DNA from: a virus
DNA length: 64,000 nt
IMG/VR virus record: IMGVR_UViG_3300047550_003635
Reading direction: 5' to 3' (one strand)
Under the pieces are notes generated by a model. That model was not told where the DNA came from. It saw only the letters and a program-made list of their open reading frames with translations, and searched no databases. Below are positions 19,384 through 39,286 of the stretch, piece by piece. Each line of letters opens with the position of its first letter. Position 1 is the first letter of the stretch. The translations under genes and the position numbers were made by a program.

Positions 19384-19412
19384 TTGACAAATAAATAATA
19401 AATCTGTATAAT
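19384..19412 (+). promoter_or_regulatory. Early promoter with IHF box (19365-19377)
   Basis: TTGACA-N17-TATAAT. Confidence 0.8.
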
Positions 19413-20252: not shown

Positions 20253-20281
20253 TTGACAAACAAAAAAGATACATATATAAT
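20253..20281 (+). promoter_or_regulatory. Promoter of tRNA operon leader
   Basis: TTGACA-N17-TATAAT. Confidence 0.8.
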
Positions 20282-20312
20282 AGTAGTATATTAAATTTTA
20301 AGAGATTCAAAA

Positions 20313-20411
20313 ATGTTACACAGTCATTCATCATTTATAGCCATTAGTCAAGAGTATCGCTTGCCAACAGCAGGATGCGATAATTGGCTATCGGACGGGG
20401 ATTGTGTATAG
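20313..20411 (+). CDS. Putative attenuator leader peptide (32 aa)
   Basis: MLHSHSSFIAISQEYRLPTAGCDNWLSDGDCV*; AAGAG RBS; 3' end overlaps the antiterminator strand. Confidence 0.65.
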   Translation: MLHSHSSFIAISQEYRLPTAGCDNWLSDGDCV

Positions 20412-20475
20412 ACTTAAAATAAGACAGTAATTCTAAACACAAACCCCTAGCAAAAACTAGGGGTTTTTTGTTTTT
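20397..20475 (+). terminator. Attenuator: terminator 20441-20469 with mutually exclusive antiterminator 20397-20412/20432-20447
   Basis: AAACCCCTAG-CAAAAA-CTAGGGGTTTTTT; GGGGATTGTGTATAGA pairs 14/16 with TCTAAACACAAACCCC. Confidence 0.75.
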
Positions 20476-20492
20476 AGCAGTATTGTTTTATC

Positions 20493-20518
20493 GTTCTTTA
20501 AAAATTAGGATTATTTGT
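20493..20518 (+). promoter_or_regulatory. boxA-like antitermination element, copy 1
   Basis: GTTCTTTAAAAATTAGGATTATTTGT, identical copy at 21598. Confidence 0.65.
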
Positions 20519-20594
20519 GTCCTGTTTGACTTCTGGTGAGGTCATCACCCTTTCAAGGTGACCAGAGCGGGTTCGAATCCCCTACAGGACGCCA
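20519..20594 (+). tRNA. tRNA-Glu(TTC)
   Basis: Cloverleaf, loop CT-TTC-AA, CCA. Confidence 0.9.
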
Positions 20595-20678
20595 TATTGA
20601 AACACATTAGCAAGACATGGTAAATCCAAGTGCCCAGTGTTGATAGCTTGTCGGTCAACATAGTGTGTTTCAATATGG
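20592..20678 (+). repeat. Repeated long-stem RNA element, copy 1
   Basis: CCATATTGAAACACATTA...TAGTGTGTTTCAATATGG. Confidence 0.7.
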
Positions 20679-20686
20679 TGAACAAA

Positions 20687-20778
20687 GGAAGTGTGGCTGA
20701 GCCTGGTTTAAGGCAACGGTCTTGAAAACCGTCGGCTCCGTAAGGGGTCCGTGAGTTCGAATCTCACCGCTTCCGCCA
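20687..20778 (+). tRNA. tRNA-Ser(TGA)
   Basis: Cloverleaf, long variable arm, CCA. Confidence 0.92.
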
Positions 20779-20786
20779 AATATAAA

Positions 20787-20878
20787 GGAGACTTGGCAGA
20801 GTGGTCGATTGCAGGAGTTTGCTAAACTCTAGGCTGGCGAAAGCTGGTCCATAGGTTCAAATCCTATAGTCTCCGCCA
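20787..20878 (+). tRNA. tRNA-Ser(GCT)
   Basis: Cloverleaf, long variable arm, CCA. Confidence 0.92.
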
Positions 20879-20885
20879 GATTTTT

Positions 20886-20980
20886 ACTTCTCAGCACTGG
20901 TGTGCGGCGGTGTCTTATAAACACTGGAGATTGGTCAGATAGGCTGAAACGGTAGGGTTCGAATCCCTAGGGAAGTACCA
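20886..20980 (+). tRNA. Atypical tRNA, anticodon TAT (Ile), long variable arm
   Basis: ACTTCTC/GGGAAGT acceptor, loop CT-TAT-AA, GGTTCGAATCC, CCA. Confidence 0.7.
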
Positions 20981-20992
20981 AAATTCGTTTAG

Positions 20993-21000
20993 TATAAATA
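20993..21000 (+). promoter_or_regulatory. T4-type late promoter
   Basis: TATAAATA upstream of HNH gene. Confidence 0.65.
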
Positions 21001-21041
21001 ATAGTTATACTTATTATTTTTCACTAAGATAGGAATAAAAT

Positions 21042-21434
21042 ATGAAAAAATGTATTTACTGTAATTTTGATTTAGTTGATGATTTTTATCCGTCGCATCC
21101 TAAAGCACACAAGAGATGTTGGAAAACAAGAACTTACCAATTGAAATTAAAAATAATTTATGATTATATGATGAAGCGTGGTGGACTTCGTTGTTCTAAA
21201 TGTGGTTACGATAATCATCCATCATCGTTATGTTTTCATCATAGAAATCCTGATGAAAAGGATCCGAAATGGAATAAACAATGGGCTAAAGCAAAATTGT
21301 ATAAAGAATTAGATAAGTGTGATATCTTATGTTTGAACTGTCATCAAGAGCATCATGCAATCACATCTGAATATGACCATTGGACAGACATGATAACAAA
21401 AATAAAGAATGATACATGGGAAATAAAAAAATAA
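21042..21434 (+). CDS. HNH homing endonuclease inserted in tRNA array
   Basis: CSKCGY..LCFHHRNP..C..LCLNCHQEHH. Confidence 0.8.
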   Translation: MKKCIYCNFDLVDDFYPSHPKAHKRCWKTRTYQLKLKIIYDYMMKRGGLRCSKCGYDNHPSSLCFHHRNPDEKDPKWNKQWAKAKLYKELDKCDILCLNCHQEHHAITSEYDHWTDMITKIKNDTWEIKK

Positions 21435-21443
21435 TAGAATAAC

Positions 21444-21521
21444 AGTGGGATGGCTGAGTGGACAAAAGCAACCGTCTGCAAAACGGTAAAATCGTGGGTT
21501 CGAATCCCACTCCTACTTCCA
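21444..21521 (+). tRNA. tRNA-Cys(GCA)
   Basis: Cloverleaf, U73, CCA. Confidence 0.9.
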
Positions 21522-21551
21522 AGTTGTTGTTTTAGAAGTAAAAGAAAATGC

Positions 21552-21579
21552 TTGACAAATGACGTAAAAAGAGTATAAT
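21552..21579 (+). promoter_or_regulatory. Internal tRNA-array promoter
   Basis: TTGACA-N16-TATAAT. Confidence 0.75.
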
Positions 21580-21597
21580 GATTTACATAGATTGATT

Positions 21598-21623
21598 GTT
21601 CTTTAAAAATTAGGATTATTTGT
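21598..21623 (+). promoter_or_regulatory. boxA-like antitermination element, copy 2
   Basis: Identical 26-mer between the promoter and tRNA-Gln. Confidence 0.65.
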
Positions 21624-21699
21624 AGGGGATTAGCCAAGCTGGTAAGGCAACGGATTTTGATTCCGTCATGCACTGGTTCGAATCCAGTATCCCCCACCA
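21624..21699 (+). tRNA. tRNA-Gln(TTG)
   Basis: Cloverleaf, CCA. Confidence 0.9.
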
Positions 21700-21787
21700 T
21701 ATTGAAATACATTCTTGTTAGAATGAAACTCTCGTAGAATGCCAATGGCCGCTTCAAAACCCGAGCGTAGAGTGTGTTTCAATATGG
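21697..21787 (+). repeat. Repeated long-stem RNA element, copy 2
   Basis: CCATATTGAAATACATTCT...AGAGTGTGTTTCAATATGG. Confidence 0.7.
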
Positions 21788-21789
21788 TA

Positions 21790-21926
21790 ACAGGTGGCAG
21801 CATGAGCGTGGTGTGATCCTCGAGGTAAGCGCCCGGACATGCGCTCACTCGTGCAGAGCAGTCGGGCGGCCGCCCGACCTCGGTGGAGTGAGAGATATGG
21901 GTTCGATTCCCATCTACTTGTGACCA
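21790..21926 (+). ncRNA. tRNA-like ncRNA (~137 nt) with T-arm and CCA but enlarged body
   Basis: ACAGGTGG/CTACTTGT stem, ATGGG-TTCGATT-CCCAT, ACCA end. Confidence 0.6.
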
Positions 21927-22048
21927 TATTGAAGCGCATTGCAAGCCCGAGTATAAACGTTAATACTTGGTAGAATGTGGAAGTTAGATATAAACTGGCC
22001 AGTGATAGCTAACAAAACATTTAAATAGTGTAGTGTGTTTCAATATGG
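21924..22048 (+). repeat. Repeated long-stem RNA element, copy 3
   Basis: CCATATTGAAGCGCATTGCA...TGTAGTGTGTTTCAATATGG. Confidence 0.7.
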
Positions 22049-22051
22049 TAA

Positions 22052-22143
22052 TTAGGCTACTTTCTGATGAGTTCTCGCCTGACAATAGAGAACGAAACAA
22101 CAAGTCGCGGTTGATGCTCCGGACATCCCCCTTGTTGTAAAAG
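22052..22143 (+). ncRNA. Type I hammerhead ribozyme
   Basis: CTGATGA core, stem II GTTCTC/GAGAAC, GAAA, stem III CAACAAG/CTTGTTG, GTA cleavage triplet, stem I CTTT/AAAG. Confidence 0.85.
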
Positions 22144-22147
22144 ATAT

Positions 22148-22221
22148 GGGAGTATAGTATAGTGGTAATACAGTGGACTTTTAATCCATCAACCAGAGTT
22201 CGATTCTCTGTGCTCCTACCA
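22148..22221 (+). tRNA. tRNA-Lys(TTT)
   Basis: Cloverleaf, CCA. Confidence 0.9.
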
Positions 22222-22228
22222 AGATTTT

Positions 22229-22302
22229 GCCTCCATGTTGTAATGGTAACCTGCTGGGCTGTCTACCTAGCGTCAGGGGTTCGATTCCCCTTGGGGGCGC
22301 CA
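22229..22302 (+). tRNA. tRNA-Asp(GTC)
   Basis: Cloverleaf, CCA. Confidence 0.9.
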
Positions 22303-22309
22303 ATATAAT

Positions 22310-22401
22310 GCGTGAACGGCAGAGACGGTGGTTCTGCAACAGACTGTAAATCTGTTCCCACAGGGTAAACATTGGAGGTTCGAATCCTTCTTCACGCACC
22401 A
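22310..22401 (+). tRNA. tRNA-Tyr(GTA)
   Basis: Cloverleaf, long variable arm, CCA. Confidence 0.9.
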
Positions 22402-22417
22402 AGATATATAATAATAC

Positions 22418-22491
22418 GGGGACTTCGTATAACGGGATTACGGTAGCTTTGCAAGCTATTCACAAGGGTTCGACTCCCTTAGTCTCCACCA
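22418..22491 (+). tRNA. tRNA-Ala(TGC)
   Basis: Cloverleaf, G3-U70, CCA. Confidence 0.9.
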
Positions 22492-22498
22492 GATTTAT

Positions 22499-22575
22499 TG
22501 CGGGAGGGTGAAACGGTTTCCACGTTGGTCTCATAAGCCAAAGACATCAGGTTCAACTCCTGTTTCCCGCAACCA
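22499..22575 (+). tRNA. tRNA-Met(CAT), initiator-like
   Basis: TGCGGGA/TCCCGCA acceptor, TTCAA T-loop. Confidence 0.8.
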
Positions 22576-22582
22576 GTTTTAA

Positions 22583-22657
22583 GCCCTGTTAGTTCTAGTG
22601 GTAAAACGTCGGTTTTGTAATCCGAATTCGGGTGTTCGATTCACCCACGGGGCACCA
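22583..22657 (+). tRNA. tRNA-Thr(TGT)
   Basis: Cloverleaf, CCA. Confidence 0.9.
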
Positions 22658-22665
22658 AGTTTTAA

Positions 22666-22742
22666 CCGAGTGTAGCGCAGTCTGGTAGCGCAGATGCTTT
22701 GGGAGCATAAGGTCGGGAGTTCGAATCTCTCCACTCGGACCA
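22666..22742 (+). tRNA. tRNA-Pro(TGG)
   Basis: Cloverleaf, CCA. Confidence 0.9.
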
Positions 22743-22749
22743 ATATAAT

Positions 22750-22828
22750 ACCCCATTAGTTCAGTGGATTTAAGAACGAGTGGCTACGGACCACTAGGTC
22801 GGGAGTTCGATTCTCTCATGGGGTGCCA
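22750..22828 (+). tRNA. tRNA-Arg(ACG)
   Basis: Cloverleaf, CCA. Confidence 0.9.
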
Positions 22829-22899
22829 ATATGTTGCAACTAATCTTAGGGATTGAATGTTAGCCTAAGTTAAAATGAAAAAAATCATTCACAGATTAT

Positions 22900-22978
22900 T
22901 CCTCATAATCCGAGCAAGGTGCACGGACGTGACTGTTAATCACTGACTAGCAAGGTTCGATTCCTTGATGGGGAGCCA
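22900..22978 (+). tRNA. tRNA-Asn(GTT)
   Basis: Cloverleaf, CCA. Confidence 0.88.
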
Positions 22979-22981
22979 GAA

Positions 22982-23174
22982 CGTGCCGTCTAATCAACGG
23001 CTAGTCTTACCCAGACGATGAGAAGTGGGATGATTTCCCAAGGGTGGTTCCAGTCCTACCGAACTGGCGCTGGCAATGCGAGAACGGTTCTTGTCGTGGA
23101 GCGGGTGGAGGGTGTAGTGAGGGGTTAAAAACCTGATGCATACACTAAATTACCGCCGAAGAATGTCAGAGCAT
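22982..23174 (+). ncRNA. Unassigned GC-rich structured ncRNA (~190 nt)
   Basis: Non-coding, multiple hairpins, lies between two tRNAs. Confidence 0.55.
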
Positions 23175-23177
23175 AAA

Positions 23178-23254
23178 GCCCCGGTGACGGAACTGGCATA
23201 CGTGTTGGTCTTAGAAGCCAAATTTTGTGGGTTCGACTCCCACCTGGGGCACCA
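23178..23254 (+). tRNA. tRNA-Leu(TAG), short variable arm
   Basis: 77-nt cloverleaf, CCA. Confidence 0.88.
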
Positions 23255-23260
23255 AATTTC

Positions 23261-23336
23261 GGATAGTTGGCTGAGCGATTGAGGCGCTGCTCTCATAAGG
23301 CAGTTTAGAGTGGTTTAACTCCACTACTATCCACCA
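23261..23336 (+). tRNA. tRNA-Met(CAT), elongator-like
   Basis: Cloverleaf, CCA. Confidence 0.8.
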
Positions 23337-23341
23337 GTAAT

Positions 23342-23415
23342 GCTTCGATAGTTAAATGGTATAACGGTCGGCTGATAACCGGCTATCACAAGTTCGATTC
23401 TTGTTCGAAGCACCA
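23342..23415 (+). tRNA. tRNA-Ile(GAT)
   Basis: Cloverleaf, CCA. Confidence 0.9.
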
Positions 23416-23421
23416 ATATAT

Positions 23422-23496
23422 GACTGCGAGGTGTTACGGTAGCATGCCGGTCTCCAAAACCGTGCGGATGGGGTTCAATTCCCTACGTGGTCGCCA
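23422..23496 (+). tRNA. tRNA-Trp(CCA)
   Basis: Cloverleaf, G73, CCA. Confidence 0.88.
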
Positions 23497-23520
23497 TTTT
23501 TATTAACAAGAGGTGTAATC

Positions 23521-23997
23521 ATGCAAAAATTAAACATAGATGAAGTAAAAGATTTTTTGATGAAACAAAGTGAAAGCACCAAAGTTTATATTGGTGCTGA
23601 TTCAGAACGATTTCTATTGAATGGAAAATGGTATGCAGATTACACAATTGCTATTGTTATTCATTTGGATGGTTGTCACGGTTGTAAAATCTTCGGTGAA
23701 ACTACACGTGAATTGGATTTTGACCAACGTAAAGATAAACCAGCAATGCGTTTGATGAATGAAGTTTACAAGGCATCTGAAATGTTCCATCGTTTAGCAG
23801 ATGTGTTGGAAGACCGTTACGTCGAAGTTCATTTGGACATTAATCCAAACGAAATGCATGGTTCTTCATGTGTTGTTCAACAAGCTATTGGTTATATTCG
23901 TGGAACTTGTAATGTTGTTCCTCTTGTTAAGCCAAATGCTTTCGCAGCAAGTTATGCAGCAGACCGTTTGAAACATGTATTGTCATATGCTGCATAA
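23521..23997 (+). CDS. RNase H-like YkuK-family protein
   Basis: YIGADS, RLMNEV, VHLDIN, KP.AFAAS.AAD motifs. Confidence 0.8.
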   Translation: MQKLNIDEVKDFLMKQSESTKVYIGADSERFLLNGKWYADYTIAIVIHLDGCHGCKIFGETTRELDFDQRKDKPAMRLMNEVYKASEMFHRLADVLEDRYVEVHLDINPNEMHGSSCVVQQAIGYIRGTCNVVPLVKPNAFAASYAADRLKHVLSYAA

Positions 23998-24010
23998 TAT
24001 ATAAGAGTAT

Positions 24011-24084
24011 GCGGGTTTAGTTTAGTGGTAAAATCAGTGCTTGCCAAGCATTAGATGAGAGTTCGATTCTCTCAGCCCGCACCA
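24011..24084 (+). tRNA. tRNA-Gly(GCC)
   Basis: Cloverleaf, CCA. Confidence 0.9.
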
Positions 24085-24085
24085 C

Positions 24086-24114
24086 TTGACAAATAACGAT
24101 TAATGTAGTATAAT
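24086..24114 (+). promoter_or_regulatory. Promoter between the two tRNA-Gly genes
   Basis: TTGACA-N17-TATAAT. Confidence 0.75.
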
Positions 24115-24122
24115 TTTAAAAT

Positions 24123-24196
24123 GCGGGATTAGTTTAATGGTAAAACGAGTGCCTTCCAAGCACACGACAGGAGTTCGATTCTCCTATCCCGCTCCA
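24123..24196 (+). tRNA. tRNA-Gly(TCC)
   Basis: Cloverleaf, CCA. Confidence 0.9.
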
Positions 24197-24200
24197 TTTT

Positions 24201-24341
24201 ATGAATTATAAGAGAAAAAAATCTAAAAGAAATGTAAGATGCACGATTTGCACCAAACTTCGTTGGTTGGGCAATTCAAAGCGCAGAAAAAGAATTAGTG
24301 ATATTAAAAATGATTTAAAAGAGAAATCGTTTAACGAATGA
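24201..24341 (+). CDS. Small basic CxxC protein (46 aa)
   Basis: MNYKRKKSKRNVRCTICTKLRWLGNSK...; ATGA coupling to the next gene. Confidence 0.5.
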   Translation: MNYKRKKSKRNVRCTICTKLRWLGNSKRRKRISDIKNDLKEKSFNE

Positions 24342-24880
24342 AAAAACGTGAAGCATATCAGCAAGGTATTCTTGATGGAATGTGTGGATTTTATTCCATC
24401 ATAAATGCTTTGTATTATCTTAAACCAGATTTATCTCCAACAAAAGCTGAAAAGCTGTTGAGAAATTTGGTAAAGACTAAGCCTCGCTCATTTCATAAGA
24501 TGTATATTGAAGGCACATATTTTGAAAATGTTGTAGATTTGATGAAACATGTTGTAAATTATGAAAGAGGTTTTTCTGATATAAATTTTAAAGTTTTATA
24601 TCAAGATGATGATTTTGAAGATGCATATGAATACATTTCTTGTTTAAACGAAGAAATTGATGGTAAAAATAGTGTTGCAATAATTTCAGTCGGTGAGCCA
24701 CTTCATCATTGGACTGTAGCAACAAAAGTAAATTTAAAACAAAACAGATTGTATCTTTTTGATTCTTATCGTCAATATTATAAACATGATTATTTGGATT
24801 TAGATGAATTAGATTTGAAAAAGAAAGAAAATCGTTTTCAATTATACACTTACGAAACATTAATAGTTCGTAAAAAATAA
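24338..24880 (+). CDS. Papain-fold cysteine peptidase-like protein
   Basis: Q..GMCG..SIINAL, HHWTV, LFDS (Cys-His-Asp). Confidence 0.6.
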   Translation: MKKREAYQQGILDGMCGFYSIINALYYLKPDLSPTKAEKLLRNLVKTKPRSFHKMYIEGTYFENVVDLMKHVVNYERGFSDINFKVLYQDDDFEDAYEYISCLNEEIDGKNSVAIISVGEPLHHWTVATKVNLKQNRLYLFDSYRQYYKHDYLDLDELDLKKKENRFQLYTYETLIVRKK

Positions 24881-24881
24881 T

Positions 24882-24957
24882 ACCCCCGTAACTCAGCGAA
24901 CAGAGTGTCTCGGTCCTAACGAGAAAGTCACAGGTTTGAATCCTGTCGGGGGTACCA
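24882..24957 (+). tRNA. tRNA-Arg(CCT)
   Basis: Cloverleaf, CCA. Confidence 0.85.
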
Positions 24958-24962
24958 ATATT

Positions 24963-25076
24963 ATGAGAAAATTTATTTTAGGTTTTATCTTAGGAAGTCT
25001 AATAGGAATCTTCACATATAAAAAAGGATTCCAAGACGGACGAGAAAAACAAGCAAAATTTTATAGAAAAGATTAA
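24963..25076 (+). CDS. Small membrane peptide (37 aa)
   Basis: MRKFILGFILGSLIGIF... Confidence 0.45.
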   Translation: MRKFILGFILGSLIGIFTYKKGFQDGREKQAKFYRKD

Positions 25077-25077
25077 T

Positions 25078-25153
25078 GGTGGCTATAATGTAGTGGTCTG
25101 CATACTTGGCTGTGAACCAGGTAGTGAGAGTTCAATCCTCTCTAGTCACCCCA
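25078..25153 (+). tRNA. tRNA-His(GTG)
   Basis: G-1/C73, cloverleaf, CCA. Confidence 0.9.
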
Positions 25154-25166
25154 AAGAAAGAATATT

Positions 25167-25697
25167 ATGCCAAGCGTATTTTTAGTTTCAGACACACACT
25201 TCGGTCATCGCGGTGTATGTCAATTTTTAAGAGAAGATGGAATAACAAAACTTCGTCCGTGGGATAATCCAGCGGATATGGATGAAGAAATGATTAAGCG
25301 TTGGAACGAAACAGTAAAGCCAACAGACAAAGTTTATCATCTTGGTGATGTTGTTATTAATCGTAAAGCATTAAAAACATTATCAAGATTAAACGGTGAT
25401 AAAGTATTAATAAAAGGTAATCACGATATATTCAGATTAAATGAATACACAGAATATTTTCGTGATGTTCGTGGGTATCATGTCATGAACAATTTTATAC
25501 TTAGTCATATACCAGTTCATCCTGATAGTAAAGGAAGATTTGTTGGAAACATTCATGGTCATCTTCACGCAAGAAAAATAAATGACCCTTGGTATCATTG
25601 TGTTTGTGTTGAACAGACTGATTTTAAACCCATTCTGTTCGAAGATGTTATGAAAAGAATAAAAGAACAAAGCCTCGATAACTCAGCGGTAGAGTAA
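25167..25697 (+). CDS. Calcineurin-like metallophosphoesterase
   Basis: SDTHFGH, HLGD, GNHD, HGHLH; last codons overlap tRNA-Val. Confidence 0.85.
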   Translation: MPSVFLVSDTHFGHRGVCQFLREDGITKLRPWDNPADMDEEMIKRWNETVKPTDKVYHLGDVVINRKALKTLSRLNGDKVLIKGNHDIFRLNEYTEYFRDVRGYHVMNNFILSHIPVHPDSKGRFVGNIHGHLHARKINDPWYHCVCVEQTDFKPILFEDVMKRIKEQSLDNSAVE

Positions 25698-25746
25698 CTC
25701 CCTTACAAGGAGAAGGTCAGCGGTTCGATCCCGTTTCGAGGTACCA
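25672..25746 (+). tRNA. tRNA-Val(TAC)
   Basis: Cloverleaf, CCA. Confidence 0.9.
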
Positions 25747-25751
25747 GTTTT

Positions 25752-25825
25752 GCTGCTATAGGTAAATGGCATACCACAACTTTGGTAAAGTTGTATCCCA
25801 AGTTCGATTCTTGGTAGCAGCACCA
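25752..25825 (+). tRNA. tRNA-Thr(GGT)
   Basis: Cloverleaf, CCA. Confidence 0.9.
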
Positions 25826-25830
25826 GTTTT

Positions 25831-25906
25831 GCAACCTTAGCTGATGCGGTCATAGCGGGCGCCTGAAGAGCGTCGGAACGTGGTTCAACTCCACGAGGTT
25901 GCACCA
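25831..25906 (+). tRNA. tRNA-Phe(GAA)
   Basis: Cloverleaf, CCA. Confidence 0.9.
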
Positions 25907-26006
25907 GAATACAGCGTTGACAAGTGTTAGTTATAAACGCCTTTGGGCAAGCTAATAAGGCATCGCGCAATAAGTCCTTATCGTAGGCTAACGACCTACC
26001 GCTGTA

Positions 26007-26195
26007 AAAATATATTGTGAAATATGTCGTATTGATAATTGGTTAGGTAAAAAATTATCTTTTGAATTGGACCACATAGATGGTAATAAGTATAATAATC
26101 ATTTGGATAATTTAAGAATAATTTGTCCAAATTGTCATTCACAAACAAGCACTTACAGAGGAAGAAATAAAAGCAAGAAATCTATTGACAAATAA
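26007..26195 (+). pseudogene. HNH endonuclease remnant (no start codon)
   Basis: CEIC...LDHIDGNKYNNHLDNLRIICPNCHSQT; in-frame stop at 25989 and no ATG between it and the motif. Confidence 0.7.
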
Positions 26196-26213
26196 ATTAA
26201 TTGTCTGTATAAT
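26185..26213 (+). promoter_or_regulatory. Promoter before tRNA-Leu(TAA)
   Basis: TTGACA-N17-TATAAT. Confidence 0.75.
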
Positions 26214-26225
26214 GTTTTTATGAAT

Positions 26226-26308
26226 GCGAGAGTGGTGAAATAGGCAAACACAAGGCACTTAAAATGCCTCGCTTCGGCTTGCGGGTTCGATTCCCGCCTC
26301 TCGCACCA
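26226..26308 (+). tRNA. tRNA-Leu(TAA)
   Basis: Cloverleaf with variable hairpin, CCA. Confidence 0.9.
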
Positions 26309-26328
26309 AAATTTTAAGGAGATAGAAT

Positions 26329-26865
26329 ATGCCATATTATGCACCTAATGTAACTTTTATGTGTCGTGAAGGTGATGTTGCTCCACAAGAGGGAACTTGT
26401 CCTATTGGTGGAAAATTTGTTGAAAAAACCAGTCAAGAACTTTTTGGTGGTAAGCGTGTAATTATTTTTAGTTTACCTGGTGCTTTTACACCAACATGTA
26501 GCACTTATCAATTACCTGGTTTTGAATCTATGTATGATGAATTTAAAGCTTTGGGTATTGATGAAATTTATTGTATTAGTGTTAATGATGCTTTTGTAAT
26601 GAATGCATGGGCACAACAATTGGGTATTAAGAAAGTTAAAATGTTGCCTGATGGTAATGGTGATTTTACTCGGTTGATGGGTATGCTTGTTAGTAAGAGT
26701 AAAATTGGATTTGGTATGCGTAGCCATCGTTATGCTGCTATTTTAACTGACATGGTTCGTGAAAAACTCTTTGTTGAAGATGGTCGTGAAGATAACTATG
26801 GTTCAGACCCTTATGATAAAAGTAGTCCTGAATCTTTGTTAGATTATTTGAAATCTACACAATAA
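26329..26865 (+). CDS. Peroxiredoxin (Prx5 type)
   Basis: PGAFTPTCS, SVNDAFVMNAW, DGNGDFT, RS.RYA. Confidence 0.9.
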   Translation: MPYYAPNVTFMCREGDVAPQEGTCPIGGKFVEKTSQELFGGKRVIIFSLPGAFTPTCSTYQLPGFESMYDEFKALGIDEIYCISVNDAFVMNAWAQQLGIKKVKMLPDGNGDFTRLMGMLVSKSKIGFGMRSHRYAAILTDMVREKLFVEDGREDNYGSDPYDKSSPESLLDYLKSTQ

Positions 26866-26871
26866 GGGATT

Positions 26872-26948
26872 GGGCCCATAGCTTAATTGGTTAAAGCAGC
26901 AAACTCATAATTTGTTGACTCTAGGTTCAAGTCCTAGTGGGCCCACCA
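26872..26948 (+). tRNA. tRNA(CAT), Ile2 (lysidine) type
   Basis: GGGCCCA acceptor typical of Ile2, CCA. Confidence 0.8.
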
Positions 26949-26953
26949 GATTT

Positions 26954-27030
26954 GCCTCGGTGACGGAATTGGCATACGTGTCTGACTCAAAATCAGAATT
27001 TTGCGGGTTCGACTCCCGCCTGAGGCACCA
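26954..27030 (+). tRNA. tRNA-Leu(CAA), short variable arm
   Basis: 77-nt cloverleaf, paralogous to 23178. Confidence 0.88.
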
Positions 27031-27045
27031 AATAATCCTAATTAG

Positions 27046-27123
27046 GCGGCTGTAGCACAGTGGATTTAGTGCAGACGGCTTCTACCCGTCAGGTCGGGGG
27101 TTCGAATCCCTCCAGCCGCGCCA
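27046..27123 (+). tRNA. tRNA-Arg(TCT)
   Basis: Cloverleaf, CCA. Confidence 0.9.
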
Positions 27124-38273: not shown

Positions 38274-38938
38274 TGTTCAATTTTGTAAACTTACCTGAAT
38301 TAGATTTTGACCTTGAAGCGATAACAACAGATACGGGTCGTGTTTATGTTTGTCCTAATGGTGAAAGATATCCATCAGTAACAACAATATTATCTTCATA
38401 TAGCAAAGAAGGTATTCAAGAATGGCGTAATATTGTTGGTGAAGAGGAAGCCAATAAAATAACAAAACGTGCAGGTCGCAGAGGGACGCGATTGCATAAA
38501 TTGTGTGAAGATTATGTGAACGGATTTTTGACCGAATTAAGACAACGTTCAATGATGCCGTTTGACAAAATGATGTTTCGTCAATTGAAGAAATATATTG
38601 ATGAAAATGTGGGTGATATCTATTGTCAAGAGCAGGCACTTTATAGCACAAAATTAAGAATTGCTGGTCGTGTTGATTGTATTGCCGAATGGAAAGGTAA
38701 ATTATCGGTAATTGATTATAAGTCGTCAACGAAAATGAAGGACGAGAGTTATATACTTAATTACTTCATGCAATGCACAGCATATTCGGAAATGTTTGAG
38801 GAGTTGACAGGACGCAGTATTGATGATATAGTAGTTCTTATTGCAACAGAGGAAGAGATTCCACAAGTATTTGAACGTAAGAAAAAAGATTACTTAGACG
38901 AATTAAATAAATACATTAACAATTTTATTGCTGTATGA
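38270..38938 (+). CDS. PD-(D/E)xK (Cas4-like) exonuclease
   Basis: YPSVTTIL, RGT.LH, AGRVDC, IDYKSS, Q..AY. Confidence 0.85.
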   Translation: MMFNFVNLPELDFDLEAITTDTGRVYVCPNGERYPSVTTILSSYSKEGIQEWRNIVGEEEANKITKRAGRRGTRLHKLCEDYVNGFLTELRQRSMMPFDKMMFRQLKKYIDENVGDIYCQEQALYSTKLRIAGRVDCIAEWKGKLSVIDYKSSTKMKDESYILNYFMQCTAYSEMFEELTGRSIDDIVVLIATEEEIPQVFERKKKDYLDELNKYINNFIAV

Positions 38939-39262
38939 AGTGAAGTAAAAGGTGTTCTGGACGTGGGTTCGATTCCCACCGTCTCCACCAAAAACATAAG
39001 CAAGAAAAGTATCCTTGAGTGGATATACGATTCTAGTTCGTGGAAGCGGGTAACAGAAAAAAGTGAACCTGAATGGCTACTAGAATGTTTTTGAGGGGGA
39101 CGACCGGTTTCGACAGGGCAAGGAGTAACGGAACAGACAGCACGGTAGGCGATGACCGTAAATCAAGCAAAACTAATAAATGCAAACGAAAGCGTTTATA
39201 AATTAGCAGCCTAAAAACTGCTTAGGGTTTCGGTAACTGTCCTAGTAACAGAATCAGTTACC
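38929..39262 (+). ncRNA. ssrA: Circularly permuted (two-piece) tmRNA, tag ANESVYKLAA
   Basis: T-arm/CCA (38959-38990) precedes the 5' GGGGACG (39096); G3-U70; tag ORF 39182-39214. Confidence 0.88.
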
Positions 39263-39286
39263 ACTTTATTAACTAAGGAGAATCAA

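Follow-up and report, generated by a model that had tools for sequence, protein, structure and literature searches.

The stretch of DNA analysed here (hereafter the window), a virus record of IMG/VR of 64,000 nucleotides (IMGVR_UViG_3300047550_003635), is low-GC (approximately 33%) DNA from an uncultured T4-like phage, and harbors about 30 transfer RNA (tRNA) genes at 20519-27123, one transfer-messenger RNA (tmRNA) gene and many small early genes. Taken together, the identified tRNAs of the array serve all 20 amino acids. At the head of this array, a leader element (20253-20518), present as a single copy in the window according to a nucleotide profile search, combines a promoter, a small open reading frame (ORF) and an intrinsic terminator. 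An earlier inspection of the letters alone (the sequence-only reading) had proposed that this element controls the tRNA genes in the manner of the leader-peptide attenuators of bacterial operons.

Anatomy of the leader element

The sigma70-type promoter that opens the element is one of five perfect promoters (12/12 matches) within 10 kb, and transcription is predicted to start near 20288. It is followed by the ribosome-binding site and the 32-codon ORF that the sequence-only reading had placed there, with AAGAG upstream of an ATG at 20313 and a TAG stop at 20409-20411 (Table 1). The internal hairpin and the strong terminator that it described are also found, the latter with a 10-bp stem and a T run, and the hairpin, with its outer (ATAGCCA/TGGCTAT) and inner (TATCGC/GCGATA) arms, might act as a pause hairpin. 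Further downstream, the boxA-like block is real and present twice, and the first tRNA (20519-20591), overlooked by ARAGORN, scores 41 bits with the Rfam tRNA model.

Table 1. Features of the leader element and of the tRNA block that follows it (window coordinates)
Feature	Position	Strand	Details
sigma70-type promoter	20253..20281	+	TTGACA-17-TATAAT, 12/12 matches
Shine-Dalgarno-like TTAAGAG	20298..20304	+	AAGAG at 20300-20304, 8 nt before ATG
Leader ORF	20313..20411	+	32 codons + TAG, MLHSHSSFIAISQEYRLPTAGCDNWLSDGDCV; 19/20 amino acids, 29 distinct codons
Segment 1	20317..20325	+	codons 2-5; pairs with 20400-20408 in the full-length minimum-energy fold
Internal hairpin	20337..20391	+	outer arms ATAGCCA/TGGCTAT, inner arms TATCGC/GCGATA; predicted fold
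Segment 2 (antiterminator 5' arm)	20397..20412	+	GGGGATTGTGTATAGA; last four codons, stop codon and one base
Segment 3 (antiterminator 3' arm)	20432..20447	+	TCTAAACACAAACCCC; shares 20441-20447 with the terminator 5' arm
Intrinsic terminator	20441..20475	+	10-bp stem 20441-20466, AAACCCCTAG/CTAGGGGTTT, loop CAAAAA, then T run
boxA-like tRNA 5' leader block	20482..20518	+	TCGTTCTTTAAAAATTAGGATTATTTGT; repeat at 21587-21623
Gated block	20519..21521	+	tRNA-Glu-like (20519-20591), tRNA-Ser(tga), tRNA-Ser(gct), long-arm tat tRNA, HNH gene, tRNA-Cys

The key property of this leader is the complementarity between the end of its ORF and the sequence entering the terminator. Segments 2 and 3 pair at 14 of 16 positions (counted by eye), with a duplex energy of -19.4 kcal/mol that is reached by only 0.02% of 5,000 versions of the upstream sequence shuffled with dinucleotides preserved (P = 0.0002), and by none of 653 other sequence windows of the phage. 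Because the shared bases can belong to one helix at a time, antiterminator and terminator are mutually exclusive, as had been claimed.

Could a plain terminator nevertheless account for the locus? An early operon lies upstream, and no other plus-strand terminator is found between the promoter at 19384 and 20441, so that transcripts coming from upstream also end at the leader terminator, which moreover wins thermodynamically in the full-length RNA. A constitutively leaky terminator of this operon, letting a fixed fraction of polymerases reach the tRNAs, would leave the ORF and the complement without a regulatory role. Set against this are the improbability of a 16-nt complement to the terminator arm (P = 0.0002), its retention with the stop codon inside in all the clades of relatives described below, and the conservation of the stretch from stop to tRNA, which is higher than anywhere else in the locus; we consider such a leaky terminator very unlikely.

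The predicted transcript (20288-20476) folds far better than its shuffles (z = -4.8). Its full-length minimum-energy structure is a long irregular hairpin closing the ORF, formed by segment 1 and by a further base helix (20295-20302 with 20413-20420), followed by the terminator; once complete, the RNA is thus not predicted to settle, at equilibrium, into the antiterminator of the sequence-only reading. If it is instead truncated where segment 3 ends, mimicking a polymerase still upstream of the terminator 3' arm, the antiterminator appears in the minimum-energy fold of all three clades (-16.4, -17.5 and -19.5 kcal/mol). An antiterminator in the cut RNA and a terminator in the full-length RNA are the behaviour expected of an attenuator. 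The element resembles no catalogued RNA: in 20253-20518, Rfam gave no match at E up to 1, either to T-boxes or to any other cis-regulatory family, the only hit being the tRNA at 20519.

Frame and helices in three clades

Deposited phage records (INPHARED) contain no close relative of the phage and no DNA match to the leader, the matches being tRNA genes only, and four exact or degenerate patterns retrieved no leader homologue from IMG/VR, nor from genome contigs. Protein searches with two upstream genes led to metagenome contigs bearing the element, and a nucleotide profile search of all retrieved loci found it in 18 of them, 17 being full-length and one (L027) ending inside the ORF. The comparison thus relies on ten distinct leader sequences falling into three clades: the window and its near-identical variants (clade A), L051 and L055 (clade B), and L046, L050, L053 and L054/L056 (clade C). 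A neighbouring protein of the WYL_2 family is 60-73% identical between these clades.

All three clades share the ATGTTAC start, the ORF end GGGG.T.GTGT.TAG (GTGTATAG), segment 3, the terminator and its T run, the boxA-like block and then a tRNA. The ORF, 32, 34 or 37 codons long depending on the clade (96, 102 and 111 nt), has changed its length by multiples of three only, and is the only ATG ORF conserved across the six frames; its interior has strongly diverged between clades yet stays open, as do about 21% of shuffles of the window's ORF. Amid variable flanks, the Shine-Dalgarno-like TTAAGAG and its spacing to the ATG are the same in each of the ten sequences, and the TAG stop lies inside segment 2 in 10/10. 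Recent substitutions, within clades, fall preferentially at codon position 3 (8 of 12, binomial P = 0.019). For example, L046 and L050 differ at 5 of 114 ORF bases, four of them at position 3, and at 10% of the neighbouring gene, as compared to 1 of 98 bases between stop and tRNA.

Between clades, non-synonymous changes dominate (14-19 versus 1-3 synonymous codons) and the leader peptides are only 45-56% identical, so that it is the frame that is preserved, not the sequence of the peptide, as would be expected of a leader peptide. This is also an argument against a small protein gene, whose product of 32-37 aa would act in trans ahead of an ordinary terminator. The conservation of the ORF, its invariant peptide motifs (ML, I, Y, T, G, DNW and G..V) and the existence of a database record would fit such a gene; these invariant residues coincide, however, with the RNA blocks that form helices, and a peptide profile searched against 1.84 billion representative proteins retrieved a single true match, a clade C variant, and none outside the lineage. 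A trans-acting protein therefore appears highly improbable.

As for the helices, the antiterminator columns are paired in 87% of cells over nine sequences, against at most 59% when the partner is slid along, and segment 2 is nearly invariant in all clades. The terminator is kept everywhere, with a compensatory A-U to G-C change and with CUAG/CUAG becoming AGA/UCU in clade C. RNAalifold retains the inner helix UAUCGC/GCGAUA, in which clade C shows a C-G to A-U double change, and the long ORF-closing hairpin is found in the minimum-energy fold of every clade. A possible co-variation between the start region and the region after the stop was also considered, and is unsupported, the comparison of cognate with cross-clade pairing having given no signal. 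The sequence-only reading had staked itself on the retention of frame and pairing in relatives, and both are kept in the three diverged clades.

The promoter and the initial transcribed sequence are the same in clades B and C (L051, L053 and L054). In two clade C loci (L046 and L050), the leader's own promoter is replaced by an inserted gene of 96 aa (3687-3977 in L046, 2347-2637 in L050). This inserted gene stands between the WYL_2 gene and the leader, and its product has a hydrophobic, signal-peptide-like N-terminus (MRKLLIVFISLISFSTFA...).

Is the ORF then incidental to a structured RNA? An untranslated small RNA, or a leader of about 185 nt acting purely at the RNA level, would account for the folding of the transcript (z = -4.8, the opposite strand folding nearly as well), for blocks kept at the nucleotide level including the non-coding segment 3, for the low identity of the peptides, and for a Shine-Dalgarno sequence that is only average. 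It would leave aside a frame kept through three lengths as the sole conserved ATG ORF, the third-position bias of recent substitutions, and the invariant TTAAGAG and ATG at fixed spacing. Furthermore, no Rfam family matches, and the copies in L046 and L050 follow a gene, lack a promoter to themselves and so behave as a cis leader, not as a separate RNA gene. An RNA-level role with an incidental ORF thus seems quite unlikely.

Amino-acid composition of the leader peptide

The leader uses 19 amino acids, Lys being absent, and 29 distinct codons in 32 positions, a count that the sequence-only reading had given correctly and that is indeed unusual. When the ORF is shuffled with its dinucleotides preserved, 29 distinct codons are attained by 0.7% of the shuffles that remain open (P = 0.007) and 19 amino acids by 1% (P = 0.01), and none of the 32-codon windows of the phage's long ORFs has more than 27 distinct codons. 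The suggestion that 29 distinct codons out of 32 are ordinary for random sequence is rejected by these shuffles.

Diversity is found in the relatives as well, with 19 amino acids in clade A (no Lys), 19 or 18 in clade B and 20 or 19 in clade C, whose database peptide contains all 20. Relative to the phage's amino-acid composition, the clade representatives A, B and C are more diverse than expected (P = 0.006, 0.011 and 0.002), also with the 11 invariant residues fixed (P = 0.012, 0.022 and 0.003), and only 0.1-0.5% of sliding windows among real phage proteins are as diverse. Phe, Cys, Ala, Gln and Arg occur in each clade at different alignment columns, as selection on composition rather than on sequence would give. 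No run of any one codon is present in the leaders, and Ala occurs 0-2 times. Residues corresponding to the tRNAs of the gated block (Ser, Ile, Cys and Gln/Glu) make up 24-31% of the leaders versus 19% of the proteome, a modest difference from a hand count. Selection for amino-acid completeness is plausible from these sequences, which represent few lineages.

A probable attenuator ahead of the first tRNA block

The anatomy of the element, the chance test on its antiterminator and its conservation in three clades argue for a ribosome-operated (leader-peptide) transcription attenuator gating the first tRNA block, to which we give a probability of roughly 65%. The core of the sequence-only reading, namely that a leader ahead of tRNA genes is translated and provides with its 3' end the 5' arm of an antiterminator competing with a terminator, is thereby supported, with ORF, helices and diversity all kept in the three clades. 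The parts, their mutual exclusivity and their conservation can be read directly from the sequences, and from them we infer that the ORF is translated, that its translation is coupled to transcription, and in which direction and to which trigger the element responds.

The mechanism would run as follows. The host RNA polymerase would start at the consensus promoter (near 20288) and transcribe the short translated ORF, whose last four codons and stop form the antiterminator 5' arm (20397-20412), able to pair with 20432-20447 and thereby to occupy the terminator 5' arm (within 20441-20466). A ribosome moving fast to the stop would cover 20397-20412, allowing the terminator to form and transcription to end near 20475. 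In contrast, a ribosome lagging or stalling in approximately the first 24 codons would let the antiterminator form first, and polymerase would continue across the boxA-like leader and transcribe the promoterless first block of tRNAs (Glu or Gln, Ser, Ser, the tat tRNA and Cys). This direction of control, with fast translation giving termination and slow translation giving read-through, is the one implied by the geometry of the leader. Since nearly every amino acid is present, a delay in decoding at many different codons could trigger read-through, and the simplest role would be a feedback in which translation speed sets the tRNA output.

The sequence-only reading went further, proposing that stalling after host anticodon-nuclease attack or starvation would allow read-through into the tRNA genes, as an inducible counter-defence. 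In a wider form of this idea, the leader would sense the integrity of the whole tRNA pool, and an anticodon nuclease, another tRNA-degrading defence or phage-induced host shut-off would stall ribosomes and call in replacement tRNAs. We regard this extension as tentative and rather unlikely. The premise of stalling at almost any codon is too broad in any case, since by geometry only about the first 24 codons would signal; Val and Trp are restricted to the masked segment or its border in clades A and C, and Lys is absent from clades A and B.

Several observations weigh against an attenuator, or against its sensing so many amino acids. The first concern the helices. Both antiterminator arms are near-invariant; two pairs vary, each on one side and still paired, and no double change is found. 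The helix consequently rests on conservation and on the chance test and not on covariation, and a shuffle control on its columns has no discriminating power. The relatives displayed the conserved short ORF and the excess diversity that the sequence-only reading had looked to them for, and showed no covariation of the antiterminator. The 1:2 (anti-antiterminator) helix differs in register between clades, with cognate pairs no better than cross-clade ones. The comparison is moreover limited to three clades, and the arrays of more distant relatives begin directly after the neighbouring gene, with no leader. Among upstream-protein relatives in IMG/VR and JGI metagenomes, mostly 37-47% identical, none carries such a leader at the head of the array. 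L019 has a terminator, then a promoter and a tRNA, with no leader, and P0056 has a different genomic context.

Other points concern translation and composition. With -2.9 kcal/mol, pairing to the anti-Shine-Dalgarno is about as strong as in the median long ORF of the phage, and a Shine-Dalgarno sequence of equal quality precedes 29% of all the window's ATGs. The ORF is almost never predicted by gene callers, although one 37-aa database record exists. The diversity statistic was chosen after the sequence had been looked at, so that the diversity of the window's leader is, taken alone, only suggestive, and against uniform amino-acid usage the P values are only 0.035, 0.06 and 0.017 (A, B and C). 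Completeness is not strict either: Lys is missing from clades A and B, L055 (18 amino acids) has lost Ala, and L050 (19) has lost Lys. Val and Trp, in clades A and C, are confined to segment 2 and its immediate surroundings, where a stalled ribosome would mask the antiterminator rather than free it. The sensing part itself (the first 24, 26 and 29 codons) contains 17, 17 and 18 amino acids (P between 0.014 and 0.035). Even so, the untranslated RNA, the leaky terminator and the trans-acting protein each fit less of the evidence than the attenuator does.

What would the switch control? The stretch between terminator and tRNA contains no promoter, and the next consensus promoter comes after tRNA-Cys, both in the window (21552) and in a clade B locus (1672 in L051). 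The attenuator would therefore govern the first tRNA block only, most of the array being freed by internal promoters, as the sequence-only reading had anticipated. An HNH endonuclease gene (21042-21434; PHROG 2255, E = 3e-18) lies between the tat tRNA and tRNA-Cys. The boxA-like block preceding the first tRNA, identical at about 29 of 30 bases in all clades, contains TGTTCTTTAAAAA followed by AATTAGGATTATTTGT, with 10-11 of 13 matches to what we take to be the rrn boxA consensus. Both copies in the window end exactly at a tRNA 5' end, and the beginning of the second coincides with the point where transcription from the promoter at 21552-21579 starts. Being downstream of the leader terminator, this block cannot act on it, and may instead shield the array, which is not translated, against Rho, or play a part in processing.

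In clades B and C, as in most variants, the block begins with a tRNA-Gln. The near-identical variants L036-L045 share the leader up to 20518 and then diverge, mostly into tRNA-Gln, the window and L040 having the Glu-like one; the Gln module of the window stands behind the separate promoter at 21552. tRNA modules thus appear to be swapped at exact boundaries (20518/20519).

Two other features of the block deserve mention. Directly after the two tRNA-Ser genes, a long-arm tRNA of 94-101 nt with the anticodon loop CTTATAA (anticodon UAU) is conserved (20880-20980 in the window, 4581-4677 in L046 and 1465-1558 in L051). ARAGORN calls it Ile(tat), and in Rfam it comes closest to tRNA-Sec, with a sub-threshold score of 33.7 bits. 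It is unusual for a tRNA with a long arm to read AUA, and codon 9 of the leader ORF is invariably ATA. In addition, hairpins with the repeated arms CCATATTGAAACACA / TGTGTTTCAATATGG follow several tRNAs (20592-20678, 21696-21788 and 21923-22049), and a similar hairpin sequence is found after tRNA-Gln in relatives (for example at 1060-1140 in L051). They might serve as signals for processing or as targets of an endonuclease, or be small mobile hairpins.

Leader-peptide attenuators are known from enterobacterial amino-acid operons (trpL, hisL, leuL, thrL, ilvL and pheL), and also from pheST (pheM). The phage element resembles the trp/his type in its short translated leader after a promoter, in a terminator ahead of the genes, in an antiterminator exclusive with this terminator, and in a stop codon placed so that a finishing ribosome masks the antiterminator arm. 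It differs in having no cognate codon run, almost every amino acid occurring about once, in regulating tRNAs and not biosynthetic enzymes or a synthetase, in being carried by a lytic T4-like phage, and in lacking any sequence or Rfam match. Every structural feature of a trp/his-type attenuator that was looked for has a counterpart in the predicted element, except a 1:2 helix of conserved register and the codon run. T-boxes, typical of Firmicutes, couple the charging state of tRNA to terminator read-through in genes of the translation apparatus, but they bind uncharged tRNA directly, with no leader peptide, and no T-box match was found in Rfam at 20253-20518.

For multi-amino-acid sensing, the closest published analogue is the upstream ORF (uORF) attenuator of whiB7 (wblC) in mycobacteria, an antiterminator/terminator switch that answers the shortage of many amino acids (PMC10274678). 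The uORF of M. smegmatis contains 19 of the 20 amino acids, whiB7 is activated by knocking down genes for 18 of the 20, and removing an amino acid from the uORF abolishes the response to that amino acid (PMC10274678). The likeness, that of an ORF with most amino acids wired to an antiterminator and a terminator, is one of working and not of homology: in Actinobacteria, whiB7 encodes a transcription factor involved in stress and resistance to antibiotics, and its uORF is enriched in alanine, whereas the phage element, unrelated in sequence, host and regulated genes, would gate tRNA genes themselves. A full-text literature search yielded no publication describing phage tRNA genes controlled by a leader peptide.

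Comparable modules are seen in distant relatives, whose WYL_2 gene is 37-39% identical. Inside the arrays of L023 (3703-3890) and L010 (4632-4825), a promoter, an AAGGA Shine-Dalgarno sequence and a GTG-start mini-ORF precede a CCCCTAG..TAGGGG terminator, and the last codons and stop of the mini-ORF form an antiterminator arm. These modules share with the window the succession of promoter, Shine-Dalgarno sequence, short ORF ending in an antiterminator arm and tRNAs, and a similar terminator stem. They differ in their GTG start, their length of 19-22 codons and their coding, which covers only the few tRNAs that follow, the window's leader standing instead at the head of the array and sampling nearly all amino acids. 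In L023, the peptide (M)IKTNTTNITCWPPKGGMS (..CWPP..) comes before tRNA-Trp, Pro, Cys and Arg, and in L010, (M)LRTVQQSSLQNWCPIHGRGMS (..QQ..Q.WC..) comes before tRNA-Trp, Gln and Cys. The Pro to Gln swap in the peptide parallels the swap in the tRNAs, which fits, in these two cases, leaders that name the tRNAs behind them. A crude scan of 14 distant loci for leader-like ORFs before terminators gave nothing convincing beyond these two, which were read by eye, and no further copies of the terminator pattern were found in five viral records.

Elsewhere in the window, the tmRNA gene (38890-39268) is of the two-piece (permuted) betaproteobacterial type (Rfam tmRNA_permuted 140 bits, beta_tmRNA 116 bits), with the tag ANESVYKLAA according to ARAGORN, and this type may hint at the host. 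A full tRNA set, a leader that would sense translation and a tmRNA together amount to a heavy investment of the phage in translation.

Phage tRNA genes are usually seen as constitutive cargo, matching codon usage or replacing tRNAs destroyed during infection. If the attenuator proposed here is real, this phage would gauge the speed of decoding and adjust its own tRNA supply, applying the logic of the trp operon to the translation machinery itself. The leader would then be a compact natural sensor of slow decoding at many different codons, and would make it possible to test directly when and for what purpose phage tRNAs are required, be it for feedback, under starvation, or in the face of host defences that target tRNAs.

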